IMG/VR virus record: IMGVR_UViG_2693429700_000008
Origin: a virus
Lineage: Duplodnaviria > Heunggongvirae > Uroviricota > Caudoviricetes
Length of the DNA stretch: 7,129 nucleotides
Strand: one strand, 5' to 3'
How positions within the stretch are numbered: the stretch's first letter is position 1; every line of letters begins with the position of its first letter. Below the pieces are notes generated by a model. That model saw only the letters and a list, made by a program, of their open reading frames with translations, searched no databases and was not told the DNA's origin. Made by a program: the position numbers and the translations under genes. Below are positions 1-6,410 of this stretch, one piece after another.

Positions 1-903
1 CCCGCCGTACACGGTGTCGTACTGGGTAGCGTATGTATTTTTCCAGTAATACGTCGTGTCACCACAAACCCACGGCACATCTGCAGCACTGCCACCATGG
101 CACTGCGCGTTAAACACGGAGAGGTCAGCACGAAACTGTGTCAGCATGGCTGTAAACAGCGCAGGTTGCTGTGCGTGGGTGGCGGCGCTCATGTCAAACT
201 CTCCCTGCATCCAGCACACCGCCAGCAACACATTTTTCGGGTTCTTCTGTAATGCAGCTTTGGTGCGCGCAATCAGGTCCTGATATAACGGTTTACCCAC
301 CCCCCAGCGCGCCGAATCCTGGCTGGCCCCCGTGTCCGCACTGAATGTCCCCTCCGCGCCCTGGGTAAATGCCGAACCACCACGACAGCATGGTACCAGC
401 AGGATCCCCGCGTTATTCGGGATATACGGGAGCAGTTTTTTGGCAATATGTAACCCCTGGCCGACACAGCCGTACTGCCCTTTGCTCAGGTCTGCCTTCG
501 GATGATTCAGCGTACTCATATCCTGCACATCATGCAGGCAGTGGTCGGCCGGAATAATATCGTTATATCTGCAGGCAGCCCCACCCGGCGTCACTGTACT
601 GCGGCGCGCCAGCTGTTTAATGCGCGGATCCGGAGCATCGTATGAATCCGGCAGCGGAAGCCCTTCACCGTAAGCCATGGCATTGGACTGCCCGGCCAGT
701 ACGATGACGTAGTACCAATCCGGCTCAGTTGCACCACTGACCACCACATCACCTTCTGCTGTAATCGCCTGCATCAGGGTATAAGGGGTTATGGCCACCG
801 GACTACCAAACGGCTGCCAGCCCTCTTTCAGTTTGTGTGTCAGCTTTTCCGCAAGGTCTGACGGCGACGCCGCCCTGACAACATCATAATGTTTAAATGT
901 CAT
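1..903 (-). CDS. nanS-p: Sialate O-acetylesterase, NanS-p-like (DUF1737-like N-terminus + SASA/SGNH esterase domain); 5' partial gene, continues beyond window start
   Basis: Minus-strand frame is open with no stop from ATG at 903-901 down to position 1 (301 codons); absent from the supplied ORF track, presumably because it has no stop inside the window. GGAGG lies 4 nt upstream of the ATG. Translation starts MTFKHYDVVRAASPSDLAEKLTHKLKEGWQPFGSP and contains VLAGQSNAMAYGEG (GQSN, SGNH block I, codons 71-74) and LAVCWMQGEFD (W-x-QGE block), as expected for prophage SASA-family esterases. Confidence 0.7.
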   Translation of the reverse strand, partial: MTFKHYDVVRAASPSDLAEKLTHKLKEGWQPFGSPVAITPYTLMQAITAEGDVVVSGATEPDWYYVIVLAGQSNAMAYGEGLPLPDSYDAPDPRIKQLARRSTVTPGGAACRYNDIIPADHCLHDVQDMSTLNHPKADLSKGQYGCVGQGLHIAKKLLPYIPNNAGILLVPCCRGGSAFTQGAEGTFSADTGASQDSARWGVGKPLYQDLIARTKAALQKNPKNVLLAVCWMQGEFDMSAATHAQQPALFTAMLTQFRADLSVFNAQCHGGSAADVPWVCGDTTYYWKNTYATQYDTVYGG

Positions 904-991: not shown

Positions 992-1086
992 AAGAAATGA
1001 AGAAGGCCACGCAGTTGCGCAGCCTGATAAACCCTGGTTAAAATCCACACGATAACAACACAACAATATCAGTATCTCATGCTATT

Positions 1087-1111
1087 GCCCGAACCCATTC
1101 GGGCATTTTTT
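1087..1111 (+). terminator. Intrinsic-terminator-like hairpin, plus-strand orientation
   Basis: GCCCGAA-CCCA-TTCGGGC (7-bp stem, 4-nt loop) followed by TTTTTT on the plus strand. Confidence 0.4.
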
Positions 1112-1117
1112 ACCCAT

Positions 1118-1148
1118 AAAAAATGCCCCTCCGGAGAGGGGCATTTTT
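1118..1148. terminator. Bidirectional rho-independent terminator
   Basis: AAAAAA-TGCCCCTC-CGGA-GAGGGGCA-TTTTT: 8-bp GC-rich stem flanked by an A-run and a T-run, so a hairpin plus U-tract forms on either strand. Sits between the TerB-like/small-ORF block and the esterase gene. Confidence 0.65.
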
Positions 1149-1345
1149 GCATGCACATTCTTTTTCTTGCATGGTGCCGGGTGCCTCCCGGTGAATTCAG
1201 TATCAGCACCTGAATCCGCGATTATCACATATACCTACTTGCTGATTGCCCCTCCGCACAGGGGGATTCACCATGCAGTAGTATTTTTAATAAACAGCAA
1301 ATAAAAAAATCAAGCATTATGCAGGCTGTTTCTTTTTATCACCGG

Positions 1346-1477
1346 CTACAGCAATACCACAATGCCGCAGACCAGCACCCCATCCGCCAGCACCGACATG
1401 ATTCTGCTGGTGAAATCCACCATCACCACCAGAAACAGCAGGAGTGCAGCCACAGCCAGGCGCAGTTTTACCGTCAC
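1346..1477 (-). CDS. Hypothetical small hydrophobic (membrane) peptide, 43 aa
   Basis: GTG start at 1477-1475 overlaps the TGA of the upstream TerB-like frame (GTGA), with GGAG 8 nt upstream. Translation VTVKLRLAVAALLLFLVVMVDFTSRIMSVLADGVLVCGIVVLL, stop TAG at 1348-1346. Not in the ORF track (too short). Confidence 0.25.
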   Translation of the reverse strand: MTVKLRLAVAALLLFLVVMVDFTSRIMSVLADGVLVCGIVVLL

Positions 1478-1935
1478 AGGTGATTCTCCAGACGAAGACC
1501 CAGAACACCGGCAATCTCTTCCAGCACCTTGCGCTCTTCCGGCTCAATTTCGCCGTCTGCCTCCGCAATGGCCACCGCCACATCCAGCACATCTTCCGCT
1601 TCACGCGTATCGTGTTTCACATCCTCGATCTCACGTAACGCCGCACGACGACCAATTTTAAAGTTCGTATCCAGCTGACCGATAATGGTTGCGCTAATCG
1701 CATTAATTTCTGACGTAAACGCGGACAGCGCAGGCTGATTACGCAGTACCTGTTCGATCTTCGCTTTCTAGGAAGCCTCACATTCACCATCTGCACAGGC
1801 CACCAAGTAGGCAGCATTAATAACCGCCTGTGCCAGATCGCGTTTCTCAAACTTTCCTTTTTCCGGTTAACGTGACACACCAATAACTCTTGTCGAAAAA
1901 GCCAGCAAGCTGAAAGACCGGTATTCACAACCACC
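1474..1935 (-). pseudogene. TerB-family (tellurite-resistance TerB-like) gene remnant, disrupted by in-frame stops and a frameshift
   Basis: The frame ending in TGA at 1476-1474 translates to ...KGKFEKRDLAQAVINAAYLVACADGECEAS*KAKIEQVL...EDVLDVAVAIAEADGEIEPEERKVLEEIAGVLGLRLENHL, two ADGE-type repeats typical of TerB-like domains. It has an in-frame TAG at 1770-1768 and TAA at 1869-1867. The FFDK-like N-terminal segment (LAGFFDKSYW) lies in a different frame upstream, and no ATG is present. The N-terminal boundary is approximate. Confidence 0.5.
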
Positions 1936-1965: not shown

Positions 1966-1995
1966 GGGCACAAAAAACCCGCTCAGTGGCGGGTT
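1966..1995 (-). terminator. Rho-independent terminator downstream of the lipoprotein gene
   Basis: Minus strand reads AACCCGC-CACTGA-GCGGGTT followed by TTTTTTGTG: 7-bp stem, 6-nt loop, U-tract. Lies ~78 nt after the lipoprotein stop. Confidence 0.65.
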
Positions 1996-2072
1996 GCTAT
2001 CACAGCTATATATTTACTTATTATGCCGTTACTAACATTTATCTTCGACATATAATCGAAAACAAGGTTTGC

Positions 2073-2498
2073 TTAAAACTCTGCTTTCATTTTATCCGGG
2101 AATTTTTTATTTGCAGCATAATAACTACCAAGTACATAAGCGTTCATTTGCTGCTCTACATCAACCCGACATGCCGCACTAGAACAAGCTCCACTGATAA
2201 GCCCAAAAGAACTCCCTTTAGCAGAGAGATCAGCTTTGATTTCCTCTACAGTGTTTTTCCCCATAGCAACTACACACCCTGTCACAATATATCTAGCTTT
2301 CACATCATCCATGCTAAGGATAGTAGTTTTCGCAATTTTGCTGTATCCATCATTTTTATAAACATCCATGGCAAACGCACGGCAATCTGTATAATACGGA
2401 CTTGCTTTAACTTGCGAATACTCAGGTAATTTCATACCAGCACAACCAACTAAACAAAAACCTATCGCTGCTATTAATACCTTTTTCATTACAGTCAT
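2073..2498 (-). CDS. Putative secreted lipoprotein of unknown function (moron cargo), ~137-141 aa
   Basis: ORF with lipoprotein signal peptide MKKVLIAAIGFCLVGCAG (lipobox LVGC). The real start is probably the second ATG at 2489 (MKKVL) rather than 2498 (MTVMKK). The mature part has four further Cys. The gene and its flanks are markedly AT-rich (roughly one-third GC by eye) compared with the ~50% GC phage genes around it. Not recognised as Bor, Cor, Lom or a known lysozyme inhibitor. Confidence 0.75.
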   Translation of the reverse strand: MTVMKKVLIAAIGFCLVGCAGMKLPEYSQVKASPYYTDCRAFAMDVYKNDGYSKIAKTTILSMDDVKARYIVTGCVVAMGKNTVEEIKADLSAKGSSFGLISGACSSAACRVDVEQQMNAYVLGSYYAANKKFPDKMKAEF

Positions 2499-2586
2499 AA
2501 CCTAGAAGCATCATTGAAACTAATTTATTAAATAACCATCGAGTTTCTGGAATACAGACGTTAACCATCTCTCCAAAATCTAAAAG

Positions 2587-2615
2587 ATAATAAGAAAAAA
2601 TGTTTAACGCACCAA
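2587..2615 (-). promoter_or_regulatory. Candidate sigma70 promoter for the lipoprotein gene
   Basis: Minus strand: -35 TTGGTG (2615-2610), 17-nt spacer, -10 TATTAT (2592-2587), ~90 nt upstream of the lipoprotein start and downstream of the tR'-like hairpin. The region is AT-rich, so chance hexamer matches are possible. Confidence 0.35.
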
Positions 2616-2642
2616 TCCATTTCATAGTTTCATGAGACATCA

Positions 2643-2675
2643 GGCACAAAAAAACCCGCTCAGCGGCAGGTTTTT
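2643..2675. terminator. tR'-like terminator after the late promoter (weak hairpin, A-run/T-run on both sides)
   Basis: CACAAAAAAA-CCCGCTCAGCGG-CAGG-TTTTT. Minus strand gives CCGC-TGA-GCGG followed by TTTTTTT. It is a diverged copy of the hairpin at 1966-1995. Confidence 0.5.
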
Positions 2676-2703
2676 GACATTTACCAACGGTAGACATACA
2701 AGG

Positions 2704-2747
2704 CCCATCGTTGAGAAAATCTTATCCATATTTTTTGAAAAATGCAA
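2704..2747 (-). promoter_or_regulatory. Late promoter pR'-like with lambda-type initial transcribed/pause element (probable Q utilisation site)
   Basis: Minus strand: -35 TTGCAT (2747-2742), 17-nt spacer, -10 TAAGAT (2724-2719), then TTTCT and CAACGATGGG (2713-2704). As I recall it, lambda pR' has the same CAACGATGGG stretch, containing the -10-like AACGAT pause inducer. Lies ~30 bp after the Q stop. Confidence 0.5.
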
Positions 2748-2778: not shown

Positions 2779-3531
2779 CTATCTTGTCACTTTTCTCAAT
2801 TGCGATTCAGCATACGCTTCTTCCTGCCAGCACTTTGTAACCAGTTTATTAATAACGTCTGCATATCCTTTGTACCACTGATAATCCGTCAGGTCCGGTA
2901 CCAGTTTCTGGACATGATGCCGCGCCAGTGTGGTTGGTAAACGGCTAAACCGGTTGCCATTGCAACGCCCACAAATCTTATAAACAGGCACACCATGAAG
3001 CCGGGTTCTTTTTTCATCCAGGACAATACCTTTACCCTTACACCCTCTGCACGCTGTGCTGACTTCTCCCTTACCATGGCAATGCTGACATAGTTCCTTC
3101 ACCCACTCTTCCTTGATAACAGATTCCCCGCTTCTGGAGTGTTTCACCACTTCGCGCAATACATTATGAAATCCAGTACCAGCACAATGCTCACAGCGAG
3201 CCTTACTTGCCGCAGACCTGGAATAATCAGCAAAGGCAAAATTCACAAGGTAAGGGATGATCTGTAACCGGATTTCTTCACTCAATTTGTTCAATGTCGG
3301 GTTATCCAGTGCCATCGCGTAATTGAGCAGACCTTCAATCGCAAACTGAGGGTCCTGAACGCCAACTTTTGCCAGGAATAAAGCAAACCCAAGCGGTGCT
3401 TTCGACTGCACCATCCCCTGCGCAGCCATTACATCCGTAATTGTTAAACCACCCGAGCCTGTCGCCGGTGCGTCATCGCTCAGTTTTGGAGATTTCGGGG
3501 AGTAATATTTCGGTAAGGCTTCAAGGTTCAT
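2779..3531 (-). CDS. Q: Late-gene antitermination protein Q (250-aa, QuuQ-like family)
   Basis: 250-aa ORF; ATG at 3531 with GGAG 7 nt upstream; position immediately upstream of the pR'-like promoter. Cys-rich central region with four CxxCxGxG-type repeats. The family call is from memory of E. coli prophage Q proteins. Confidence 0.75.
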   Translation of the reverse strand: MNLEALPKYYSPKSPKLSDDAPATGSGGLTITDVMAAQGMVQSKAPLGFALFLAKVGVQDPQFAIEGLLNYAMALDNPTLNKLSEEIRLQIIPYLVNFAFADYSRSAASKARCEHCAGTGFHNVLREVVKHSRSGESVIKEEWVKELCQHCHGKGEVSTACRGCKGKGIVLDEKRTRLHGVPVYKICGRCNGNRFSRLPTTLARHHVQKLVPDLTDYQWYKGYADVINKLVTKCWQEEAYAESQLRKVTR

Positions 3532-3544
3532 GCTCGTTCTCCAC

Positions 3545-4540
3545 TTACGCCAGTACGCCTATTGCCAGCGCACGATCGATAAAACGAAATATCAGCTCCA
3601 GCTGGGAACCATACTTCTCTTCAAATGCCACAGTATCCGCATGCAGCTCGTCGTGATGCTTTCTGCACAAAGGCAACACAAAGAGGTCATGCGCTTTTGT
3701 ACCCATTCCCCCCTGACCGTGGCCTATCAGGTGGTGGGGATCATCAGCAGGCTTTCCACAACATGCACACGGCTGTGTCTTAACCCAGCGTGTGTACTTT
3801 TCATTAACCCAGCGGCGACGTTTTGGGCGTAACATAAAAGACTCCGGCGACTCCGGATCCACTTTCAGCGCCAGCACCTTTTTCGCCTTATCCTGGATGA
3901 TGCTGGTGGCAGGAACCGAAGGCACAAGGTCACTTTCCCGGGTGACAGACGGCACAACAGGCTTCGGTAATCTCAGTGCCTTACGGGCTGCACTTTCCGG
4001 TAAGGCATCCGCCAGGTCATTACGAATCAGCCACCAGCACAGTTCCGGCATTGTCACAACGTGACTGTCATCAAAACCGAGATCCCGACGCACAACAGAC
4101 AACACCCAGCGGGCACAGTTATCCGTTGCCATTGATTCCAGCCGTTCCGTGAACTGATCACGCAGCTGGTTATCGCAGTGCCAGCACAGACGGATTGCGC
4201 CCGGCGCGTGTCGCATTGTGGTCATGTTCTCTCTGTGCCAATCGGAATGAGGCCACTGGCAGCCTTTTTCACGAAGTAACCAGCTTTCAAGACATTCCAC
4301 GCCACCAGCACGACGGATCACTGCCTCATTGCGGAACACGGCCCGAACGGCAGGATCATCCACCAGCGGTTGTGATGCCGCCGGAACGGCACCACTGGCG
4401 AAAGATGAATAACGTTCCGGCTCAGGCTCCAGCAGGACACGCCCCTGCATAAACAGGGGCATCAGCTCTGAACCTGGCCTGAACAATACGATCCCCATAC
4501 GCGGGGCAATTTCAGGGGTCAGTAGTGCTCTCACGGTCAC
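3545..4540 (-). CDS. DUF968-family (YdfU-like) prophage protein with C-terminal Cys/His (HNH-like) motif
   Basis: 331-codon ORF directly upstream of Q. C-terminal CACCGKPADDPHHLIGHGQGG...LCRKHHDELHAD. Start is uncertain: GTG at 4540 is 1 nt after the KilA-N stop, and GTG at 4534 has GAGG 5 nt upstream. Confidence 0.65.
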   Translation of the reverse strand: MTVRALLTPEIAPRMGIVLFRPGSELMPLFMQGRVLLEPEPERYSSFASGAVPAASQPLVDDPAVRAVFRNEAVIRRAGGVECLESWLLREKGCQWPHSDWHRENMTTMRHAPGAIRLCWHCDNQLRDQFTERLESMATDNCARWVLSVVRRDLGFDDSHVVTMPELCWWLIRNDLADALPESAARKALRLPKPVVPSVTRESDLVPSVPATSIIQDKAKKVLALKVDPESPESFMLRPKRRRWVNEKYTRWVKTQPCACCGKPADDPHHLIGHGQGGMGTKAHDLFVLPLCRKHHDELHADTVAFEEKYGSQLELIFRFIDRALAIGVLA

Positions 4541-4541
4541 C

Positions 4542-5351
4542 TCAATGAACGGTATCGAGCAGCTTTAACAGCTCAGGGAATCGGGATTCGAAGAAATGCG
4601 GCTGCGTCTCGCGCGGATTTGCGGGACTGGTGATGTTCTTGCCGAACATGCAGCCTTTCGCCGTCAGCGACCAGAATTTTTTGATGTTGTTAATCGCAGT
4701 GCGGCTGTATCGTTCACGTTGTTCAACGATCCCCAGCTTTGCCATCTGGTGATATGCCTGATTAGCCGTCAGGCGGATACCATACTGTTTCAGCAGTGCA
4801 CTCAGTGACAGTGTCGGGCGACTTGAGCCATCGTGTGCATCAGCAGGAGCATCAATGGCATAGCGCGGTGCCAGATTCGGTAAGCCAACAGCCTCCTGGA
4901 GTTTCTGACAGGCACCAAGCACAGATGAGTTAGACAGGTTTAATTCCCGACGCATAAAGTCCAGCAGAATCACACCAGCCTGCATCTTGTCAGCAGCCTG
5001 TCCGGATAATTTTTCCGGTGTGCTGGTTACCATGTCGAAAGTACGGATCACCTTCAGATGGAATGACGGGCTGATCCACATTGCATAGGCATACACCAGT
5101 TCCTTGCAGACATACGTTCCCCGTTCATTTCCCCCATGAATCACACTCACCGGGTCAACACCCAAATTCTGGGTGTTGGTCAATTCATGAACAAGTTCAA
5201 CAGTTTGTTGGCTGGAAAGAAACTTTCCTGGCTCCTTGGTTCTGGCATTTGCACCAGATGCTACTGCTGCGTGATGTAGATCGTTCAGGCTGTAACGCCC
5301 ATAAACATCACGACGAACTTCAATACCATCAATGACCATCAGATTATTCAT
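4542..5351 (-). CDS. KilA-N domain protein (Roi/antirepressor-like)
   Basis: ATG at 5351 with AGGAG 9 nt upstream (MNNLMVIDGIEVRRDVYGRYSLNDLHHAAVASG...). The ORF-track start at 5384 would overlap rusA and lacks an RBS. N-terminal ~110 aa fit the KilA-N pattern (YSLNDL, ERGTYVCKELVYAYAMWISPSFHLKVI). Confidence 0.8.
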   Translation of the reverse strand: MNNLMVIDGIEVRRDVYGRYSLNDLHHAAVASGANARTKEPGKFLSSQQTVELVHELTNTQNLGVDPVSVIHGGNERGTYVCKELVYAYAMWISPSFHLKVIRTFDMVTSTPEKLSGQAADKMQAGVILLDFMRRELNLSNSSVLGACQKLQEAVGLPNLAPRYAIDAPADAHDGSSRPTLSLSALLKQYGIRLTANQAYHQMAKLGIVEQRERYSRTAINNIKKFWSLTAKGCMFGKNITSPANPRETQPHFFESRFPELLKLLDTVH

Positions 5352-5370
5352 ACTTCGTTTCTCCTCTTGA

Positions 5371-5760
5371 TCAGGCGGCTGCACCCGCCGTTTTCTCGTA
5401 CTTACTGATAGTGATCTCGACCTTCCCTTTCGGGATAACCGGTCCCCACTCCACCAGCATTCTTTTCACCTGACTGTCGTCTTCCCACACACCCGCGTGG
5501 GTCAGGGCGTCAAACAGCGCCTTGTTATAGTTGTCCAGATCGCGGATCCTGTTATCCGGAGGAAACAACACGATCTCCACTGAAGCAGGTGCCGACGTTG
5601 GTTTCGGCAGACGACGTAACTGCTCAATGATGGCGGCACACGCCGCGCTCTGAAATTTTCGCCCCGCCTCGCTTATCAGGCTCTTACCAGCAAATGCCCC
5701 TTTGTTGGGGTGTCGCCAGTACGTGTTCACGCTGGGCGGAAAAGGCAGTATTAGCTTCAT
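5371..5760 (-). CDS. rusA: RusA-family Holliday junction resolvase
   Basis: 129-aa ORF: ILPFPPSVNTYWRH...RIRDLDNYNKALFDALTHAGVWEDDSQV matches the RusA pattern (LPWPPSNNRYYRH...[28 protein letters not shown]). Its ATG overlaps the methyltransferase stop (ATGA). Confidence 0.9.
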   Translation of the reverse strand: MKLILPFPPSVNTYWRHPNKGAFAGKSLISEAGRKFQSAACAAIIEQLRRLPKPTSAPASVEIVLFPPDNRIRDLDNYNKALFDALTHAGVWEDDSQVKRMLVEWGPVIPKGKVEITISKYEKTAGAAA

Positions 5761-6410
5761 GCCACCATCTCCCTGACCAGTTTTTCCGCCTGCTGGCGAA
5801 CCTGCGCCAGAAATGCCTCACCACATGCCTCAAGTTCATCGCGCCCGATGTAGCTGATTGCCGGTCCCTTCCAGGTCTTGTCGAAAACAGCAATAGCACC
5901 AGCGAAGAAAGCACCTGTTGGCACCTGCTTTTCGTCTTTCGGGATAAACCAGGCAGGCAGTTCAAAACCAATACGCCCGCGAATAAAAGCAATATGATCT
6001 GCACCTTCCGGCCACCACACTTCGCCGGTGGCAGCTTTGATCAGGAAAACATAGCGCCCGCCTTTATCACGCATGGCACTGGCATGCTTCATGATGTAAC
6101 GCATGCCGGTGATGTATTGCCCCTCATGCTGACTGGCGCGGCTGTACGGGGGATTGCCAAAGGCAGCACCTTTAAGCTCCGCAAGACGTTCTGACCAGTC
6201 ATGCGCCAGCGCGTTGTCTTCCGCCGTGTAATACGCGGCACATTTGGCGTTATCACCGTCAGTGAACAGATCCAGAACAAACGGACCAAACAAGGTGTTA
6301 ATTCCCCAGAAAATGTTGTCCGGCGTGCGCCACTGATCGCCCACTTCCTTCAGTTCATGGGCTGGTTTGTTCCGCAGTTCTACCAGCGCCTGGCAATATT
6401 TATTACTCAT
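5757..6410 (-). CDS. Phage Dam-family DNA N6-adenine methyltransferase (orphan)
   Basis: 217-aa ORF with WRTPDNIF, FVLDLFTDGDNAKCAAYYT and FGNPPYS (N/DPPY catalytic motif IV). No adjacent restriction-enzyme gene. Confidence 0.9.
   Translation of the reverse strand: MSNKYCQALVELRNKPAHELKEVGDQWRTPDNIFWGINTLFGPFVLDLFTDGDNAKCAAYYTAEDNALAHDWSERLAELKGAAFGNPPYSRASQHEGQYITGMRYIMKHASAMRDKGGRYVFLIKAATGEVWWPEGADHIAFIRGRIGFELPAWFIPKDEKQVPTGAFFAGAIAVFDKTWKGPAISYIGRDELEACGEAFLAQVRQQAEKLVREMVA

Follow-up and report, generated by a model that had tools for sequence, protein, structure and literature searches.

An AT-rich moron encoding a predicted lipoprotein lies between two terminator copies downstream of Q in Escherichia coli prophages

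The lipoprotein gene and its terminator-bounded cassette

We analyzed a 7,129-nucleotide (nt) stretch of viral DNA (hereafter, the window) from IMG/VR record IMGVR_UViG_2693429700_000008 (Caudoviricetes), which is 100% identical to E. coli NZ_CP148401.1, belongs to a lambda-like prophage, and carries all of its genes on the minus strand. Our subject is a gene for a predicted lipoprotein at 2073-2498 (-). Its upstream neighbor, located outside the cassette described below, encodes the late antiterminator Q (2779-3531 (-)), a 250-amino-acid (aa) protein of the ydfT/Qin type (PF03589, E = 9e-54; PHROG 127) that RefSeq labels 'ydfT antitermination protein'. An earlier interpretation of the same DNA, made without database searches (hereafter, the sequence-only reading), had described at this place an AT-rich lipoprotein moron in the slot where Shiga toxin (Stx) phages carry stx, with its own candidate promoter and its own terminator. 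That description is essentially right, apart from the strand, which is minus, and from two points taken up below, the relation to stx and the strength of the promoter.

The open reading frame (ORF) encodes a 141-aa precursor that begins MTVMKKVLIAAIGFCLVGC; translation may in fact start at the second ATG (2489), given that MMKK, MNKK, or MIKK opens the protein in relatives. RefSeq lists the product as WP_000217632.1, 'hypothetical protein', and elsewhere in the databases it is called either 'hypothetical protein' or, automatically, 'Lipoprotein'. The predicted signal peptide and lipobox span 2442-2498 (-), where two lysines (K5-K6) are followed by a hydrophobic stretch and by L16-V17-G18-C19. 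Cys19 is the predicted lipidated residue, and the four further cysteines noted in the sequence-only reading are C39, C75, C105, and C110. The predicted mature protein has 123 aa, a mass of ~13.4 kDa, and a pI of 8.6. A strict PROSITE-like lipobox pattern fails in the window allele, which has Cys at position -4. Of the 8 family members tested, 5 conform to the pattern and have Ser or Gly at that position. The lipoprotein call rests on the classic lipobox, [LVI][ASTVI][GAS]C, together with conservation in the family. In E. coli, the '+2 Asp' rule governs sorting between the outer and inner membranes. Residue +2 is Ala in the window protein and Asp in no relative, and outer-membrane sorting is thus predicted by this rule.

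The gene is real and under purifying selection. The ratio of nonsynonymous to synonymous substitution rates (dN/dS) is 0.07-0.22 against the Salmonella and other homologues, with synonymous sites near saturation, and the lipobox Cys and the four other cysteines are invariant across relatives of 54-98% identity. The family alignment contains 60 invariant columns, including the motif VYKNDGYSK (V46-K54), and a distant relative detected by profile (P0015, E = 3e-8) has the lipobox LSGC and the same four-cysteine pattern.

The gene is located in a low-GC island at 1972-2672, with a GC content of 0.36 versus ~0.52 elsewhere in the window, so the AT-rich island of the sequence-only reading is borne out. 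More precisely, the unique body of the cassette, which is absent from the empty-site prophages described below, covers 1996-2647 (-); the insert at 1996-2648 has a GC content of 0.360, as compared to 0.523 for the window outside the insert and 0.447 for the next lowest 653-nt stretch. GC content at third codon positions is likewise lower in the lipoprotein ORF (0.28) than in Q (0.47).

Both ends of the island are terminators. The left boundary is the tR' terminator at 2672-2648 (-), which has a folding energy of -11.7 kcal/mol (RNAfold) and a T-run. The right boundary is the cassette's own Rho-independent terminator at 1995-1972 (-), also predicted by the sequence-only reading, for which a terminator scan gave a 7-pair stem followed by a T-run (-11.3 kcal/mol). 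These two terminators are the upstream and downstream copies of a 24-nt direct repeat, identical at 22 of 24 positions and spaced 677 nt apart; a repeat of such kind occurred in none of 200 shuffled sequences. In phage Ayreon and in an Stx2c phage, identity between the two copies extends over at least 21 nt. Between its boundaries, the cassette holds a 5' region of ~150 nt, one gene, and one terminator. Two traits of a moron, namely, a terminator of its own and a deviant base composition, are found here.

Occupied sites, empty sites, and other genomic settings

A search of complete E. coli genomes with an artificial 'empty' junction yielded prophages that match it without a break. We aligned two such empty-site prophages (L005 and L006) with the window, phage mEp460, and the Stx2k phage phiSTEC1575-Stx2k, which resolved the structure of the insertion. 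In the empty site, Q is followed by TTGCAT-17-TAAGAT, a single terminator AACCCGCCACTGAGCGGGTTTTTT, and then GTACCTGTAAAC. Occupied sites have identical flanks plus 677 bp bounded by two terminator copies, this length being the net insertion with one terminator copy counted, and the downstream copy at 1972-1995 is identical to the sole terminator of the empty sites. The island is a true moron located downstream of Q, pR', and tR', as the sequence-only reading had it, given that its flanking genes adjoin each other in related phages.

We also counted the gene and the empty junction (query L005:3200-3380) in complete E. coli genomes. The gene occurs in 215 of 5,426 genomes (~4%), in 214 of the 215 in the context seen in the window, and the uninterrupted junction occurs in 185 of the 5,426; both states are common. 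All 215 copies are at least 95% identical with an intact frame, and one match covers only 82%. A further ~1,180 genomes match one half of the junction only, that is, either pR' plus the terminator or the terminator plus the downstream sequence, and the terminator is therefore a general joint between late-region modules. The partners on the other side of these half-matched junctions include tRNAs, methylase remnants, and unrelated genes. The cassette most likely entered through recombination inside the terminator, a sequence of which each end now has a copy, and its low GC content favors an insertion of foreign DNA. The paired sites illustrate how a short conserved sequence can link modules by recombination in the mosaic genomes of phages.

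As a separate observation, a carrier (L020, 28171-30070) encodes a reverse transcriptase and a SLATT protein at its integrase-proximal end, and an empty-site prophage (L023, 29190-30794) encodes a TIR-domain anti-phage reverse transcriptase at that end. These two prophages have the Q/late region in common but differ in defense-type cargo.

The gene follows Q in several sequenced phages, including mEp460, Ayreon, and PhiR47_1. In phiSTEC1575-Stx2k, which has the same Q type as the window, the order is Q, the lipoprotein gene, two small ORFs, three tRNAs, stx2A, stx2B, and the holin gene. A protein identical to the window's product was found in 15 records of Stx2c phages, in one of which ~1.7 kb separates the gene from the tRNA-stx block downstream. 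In these phages the gene is present together with stx, between Q and stx, and is no substitute for it. The sequence-only reading was accordingly correct in assigning the gene to the slot that holds stx in a phage with the same Q type, but not if this is taken to mean that the gene replaces stx. Its position between Q and stx2c places it in a medically relevant phage lineage. Similarity between the window and the mEp460, Stx2c, and Stx2k phages stops ~110 nt past the second terminator, near 1861, beyond which the content differs per phage: a TerB pseudogene, a methylase gene, tRNAs, or stx.

Homologues in settings other than that of the window are 54-76% identical. In a Salmonella prophage, the gene follows a Q of the DUF1133/Phage_antitermQ type and precedes another lysis cassette, with the same terminator sequence upstream. 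In Salmonella diarizonae prophages (L012 and L013) and in another prophage (L010), it lies in the early region beside a divergent vapBC operon. L012 (4629-5736) also has, beside this homologue and vapBC, a gene for a protein of 134 aa that matches the TolA C-terminal domain (PF06519, E = 1e-6), another envelope-related accessory gene. A copy of 62-65% identity follows dnaE in ~200 non-mobilizable plasmids of ~100-120 kb from Klebsiella, Citrobacter, and Cronobacter, and the same copy follows dnaE in five Klebsiella phage records (84-120 kb). We take these elements to be SSU5-like phage-plasmids; their records are mostly from Klebsiella, and many are clinical. There, a second lipoprotein of 99 aa starts 10 nt after the stop codon of the homologue (5431-5730 in both L007 and L008), and this spacing suggests a two-lipoprotein operon in the phage-plasmids. 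The 99-aa protein has the lipobox LSGC, two further cysteines, and no Pfam match. The gene thus forms a stand-alone unit in each of four unrelated settings, next to a ydfT-type Q, a DUF1133-type Q, vapBC, or dnaE.

Upstream of the cassette, the candidate late promoter pR' (TTGCAT-17-TAAGAT) is located at 2747-2719 (-) and matches 7 of 12 consensus positions. This block is invariant in all 5 of the aligned phages and prophages and its flanks vary; we infer the pR' assignment from its position and conservation. Transcription from it would yield a leader RNA of ~65 nt that ends at tR'. By position, this predicted leader (2648-2747 (-)) resembles the lambda 6S RNA and the StxS small RNA (sRNA) of Stx phages, and an Rfam search with it returned no family.

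Downstream of tR', the best candidate for a sigma-70 promoter of the gene's own, found by a custom scan, is TTGGTG-17-TATTAT at 2615-2587 (-), ~90 nt before the start codon, and it is identical in mEp460 and the Stx2k phage. A Salmonella homologue (L009) has TTGGTA-18-TATCAT, with 9 of 12 consensus positions, at the same aligned place. In L010 and L012, the upstream neighbor is the divergent vapBC operon, and transcription should therefore start locally, within the intergenic region. In every setting, the gene is preceded by 150-260 nt of non-coding DNA and by a terminator or a divergent gene, as would be expected of an autonomous unit. The 5' region itself folds unremarkably (z = -0.23), and a search for regulatory RNAs with Rfam gave only terminator-like sub-threshold matches.

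A small ORF between tR' and the gene (2537-2650 (-) in the window; 40327-40440 in L017 and 14398-14511 in L018) is annotated in the Ayreon, PhiR47_1, and Stx2k phage records. We judged it spurious: it is probably no gene, because its stop codon varies (giving 91 aa in the window) and it is not kept in Salmonella.

Family, predicted structure, and possible roles of the product

As stated in the sequence-only reading, the product could not be placed in a known lipoprotein family. Pfam returned nothing for the window protein at E up to 0.1 and, for 8 family members at E up to 10, single chance matches only; NCBIfam gave no family at permissive thresholds, and PADLOC gave no match at E up to 1. 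The sole significant PHROG was 4748 (E = 7.5e-91, full length), the function of which is unknown, and there was no match to annotated exclusion or defense families among the annotated PHROGs and PADLOC. A word-indexed search of 5.8 billion proteins resolved the family into 9 clusters, and a profile search of 1.84 billion representative proteins yielded 8 matches, all of them family members or fragments; a search seeded with the distant P0015 retrieved P0015 alone. Among these billions of proteins, there are hence no relatives beyond a few enterobacterial mobile elements. The literature searched contained nothing on the gene or its family, so that a gene present in the above-mentioned E. coli genomes, in Stx2c phages, and in an Stx2k phage has been studied by nobody. 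Within this literature the protein family is new, and the kind of element is well known.

AlphaFold2, run on an 8-sequence alignment, predicted four main helices, a short fifth helix at 27-31, and a short hairpin, with a predicted local distance difference test score (pLDDT) of 79 and a predicted template-modeling score (pTM) of 0.75 for the best model. In this model, C39 and C75 are located on neighboring helices, and C105 and C110 lie on either side of a turn between two helices, which points to two probable disulfides, C39-C75 and C105-C110.

Phage morons as Juhala and Hendrix use the term (e.g., lambda bor and lom, and HK97 gp15) offer one close parallel. They too are single genes with their own terminator, placed between genes that adjoin each other in relatives, deviant in composition, and present or absent among near-identical phages; the cassette may also share with them a promoter of its own. 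The cassette described here differs from them in that its insertion joint can be read exactly, as a duplicated tR'-type terminator, and in that its product belongs to no characterized family of moron proteins. Among lysogenic-conversion genes, lipoprotein morons (e.g., Bor, Cor, and Llp) are well known, and the layout is therefore ordinary. The stx/tRNA/nanS-p cargo region is comparable as well, since it occupies the same slot, is silent from pR' in the lysogen, and is read through after Q acts; the prophage of the window also has a nanS-p-like esterase gene, a holin gene, and rrrD downstream. The gene described here, in contrast, is no alternative to stx, precedes the tRNA-stx block in Stx2c and Stx2k phages, and has its own terminator.

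We favor, while granting it somewhat less than an even chance, the interpretation that this is a self-contained moron cassette whose outer-membrane lipoprotein serves as a lysogenic-conversion factor, binding a general envelope component and protecting the carrier. The use of the promoter, the lipidation, the location in the outer membrane, the pairing of the cysteines in disulfides, and the protective function are all steps that we infer. In the lysogen, pR' transcripts would end at tR' after ~65 nt, and since the gene lies downstream of tR', only its own weak promoter could express it. After induction, Q-modified RNA polymerase would pass both terminators, the gene would be the first of the late transcript, and the extra terminator would be harmless to the lysis genes once Q acts; the slot would collect cargo because Q read-through tolerates added terminators. 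After export, the precursor would receive its lipid at Cys19 and be sorted to the outer membrane, where a small helical domain, oxidized by DsbA and probably stapled by both disulfides, would face the periplasm. There it would act on a general envelope component, independently of a receptor, and the lysogen would gain protection against agents that have to pass through the envelope (e.g., unrelated phages, bacteriocins, or factors from the host). Of all the steps of this proposal, the function is the least certain.

An extension of this interpretation is that the family is a new enterobacterial group of phage-borne outer-membrane lipoproteins, possibly with a new helical, disulfide-stapled fold, that forms a receptor-independent barrier in the periplasm (e.g., to DNA injection by unrelated phages or to bacteriocin entry) and spreads as a terminator-bounded unit among Stx2c and Stx2k phages, other lambdoid prophages, and phage-plasmids of Klebsiella. 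Taken as a whole, this extension is doubtful.

Several points weigh against the moron interpretation that we favor. A deletion between the repeats would give the same empty site, so that the event may have run in either direction. A consensus scan at a threshold of 9/12 found no sigma-70 site between tR' and the start codon; the promoter anticipated by the sequence-only reading is present as a candidate site, but a weak one, which at 8/12 falls below that threshold. The structural model was built from 8 sequences only, and 4 of the 5 models scored lower (pLDDT of 58-71). Fold searches gave generic helical bundles only, with no solved structure above that level, and the shallow alignment gives these negative results no more than moderate strength. 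In addition, Pfam, NCBIfam, PADLOC, and the fold searches indicated no binding partner, and the literature searches gave no transcript or protein data for the gene. Finally, the sample used below to compare J types includes only five prophages.

Among other possible roles, a Bor/Iss-like contribution to host fitness or virulence, through resistance to serum, bile, antimicrobial peptides, or another stress, is unlikely, though it deserves consideration. The size, predicted location, and moron layout match lambda Bor, also a small predicted outer-membrane lipoprotein encoded near the lysis region of a lambdoid prophage, and the carriers include avian pathogenic E. coli (APEC) O2:K1:H7, urinary, and Shiga toxin-producing E. 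coli as well as many clinical Klebsiella plasmids. However, water, wildlife, and livestock are also among the sources of carriers, and no pathotype is evidently enriched. The two proteins share no detectable similarity; the one described here is predicted to be helical, has four conserved cysteines, and is encoded right after Q rather than after Rz. The absence of a Pfam match at E up to 10 covers Bor if its profile is in the Pfam copy searched; we take the family to be PF06291 and presume that this copy includes it.

It is improbable that the product is a periplasmic immunity protein or inhibitor directed against a phage tail lysozyme, a type VI secretion system (T6SS) amidase, or a colicin- or pesticin-like toxin. 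A small protein predicted to be stabilized by disulfides and anchored in the periplasm, with the strictly conserved surface motif VYKNDGYSK, would suit such a task, and the gene occurs irrespective of the tail and lysis type of the phage that carries it.

Cor (phi80, N15, HK022, and mEp167) and T5 Llp are FhuA-blocking exclusion lipoproteins, and the protein described here resembles them as a phage-encoded, predicted outer-membrane lipoprotein with (predicted) disulfides and a plausible part in exclusion. By analogy, a lipoprotein of temperate siphophages could block the phage's own receptor (e.g., OmpC for phages with a 434-type tail-tip protein J), thereby excluding siblings and shielding progeny from debris. 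We compared J among 5 genomic prophages and 5 phage carriers; of the latter, 2 were aligned locally and 2 were read from a database search against mEp460. The J C-terminus of mEp460 is 96% identical to that of phage 434, and that of mEp460, Ayreon, the Stx2c phages, and the Stx2k phage (4 of the 5 kinds of sequenced phage carriers) is 90-100% identical to mEp460's. A linkage to an OmpC-type tail tip was promising at first and was dropped once more carriers and empty sites had been included. PhiR47_1 has another J type (61% identical), MS6198 has the PhiR47_1 type, and C7 has a third, such that carriers show at least three J C-terminal types, one of which an empty-site prophage has in common with a carrier. 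Since J types are mixed among carriers, blocking of the phage's own receptor is less likely. Moreover, the gene adjoins Q, vapBC, or dnaE and never tail genes, its homologues occur in phage-plasmids and Salmonella prophages with other virion modules, and no annotated PHROG matches it. Unlike Cor, the protein is not tied to one J type, and it is about twice as large. All in all, we consider a self-receptor blocker quite improbable.

We give similarly little credence to a function in the lytic cycle, for example, in envelope integrity or lysis timing, instead of one in the lysogen. The position right after tR' guarantees strong Q-dependent transcription, and the gene's own promoter is weak. On the other hand, about half of otherwise near-identical prophages do not have the gene, which is therefore dispensable for growth; it is found with three different lysis cassettes and, in the phage-plasmids or beside vapBC, does not belong to a late operon.

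That the region is non-functional AT-rich filler or a miscalled ORF, as its base composition and an antisense ORF of 147 aa at 1986-2429 (+) might suggest, has a negligible chance of being correct, being contradicted by the dN/dS values at saturated synonymous sites, by the frame kept intact in 215 genomes, and by the lipobox and cysteines, which persist in relatives of as little as 54% identity as well as in the distant P0015.

The favored role as a protective lysogenic-conversion factor, like its competitors, is easily testable in K-12 lysogens of mEp460 and Ayreon.

Neighboring genes and additional cargo

The gene order of the window is the late-region layout of Stx-type phages. Upstream of Q are genes for an N6-adenine methyltransferase (5757-6410 (-)), RusA (5371-5760 (-)), a KilA-N protein (4542-5384 (-)), and a DUF968 protein (3545-4540 (-)). 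Downstream of the moron, a TerB-family gene with an internal stop, annotated in RefSeq as a pseudogene (1474-1836 (-)), is followed by an intact DUF3927 ORF of 43 aa (1346-1477 (-)), and both can be viewed as more cargo between the moron and the lysis genes. No tRNAs were found in the window. The 5' part of a gene for a SASA/NanS-p-like carbohydrate esterase (1-903 (-)) runs off the left end; a NanS-p-like esterase gene is the one that follows stx in Stx phages. Beyond the window, this gene is followed by genes for a holin and the RrrD lysozyme and by an Rz-like gene.

In addition, the interval from the DUF3927 ORF to the esterase gene contains two back-to-back sRNA matches, both well above the Rfam threshold. 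These are to AgvB, an anti-GcvB sRNA, at 1050-1111 (+) (Rfam score of 96.5 bits versus a gathering score of 56), and to STnc100 at 1112-1302 (-) (146 bits versus 47).

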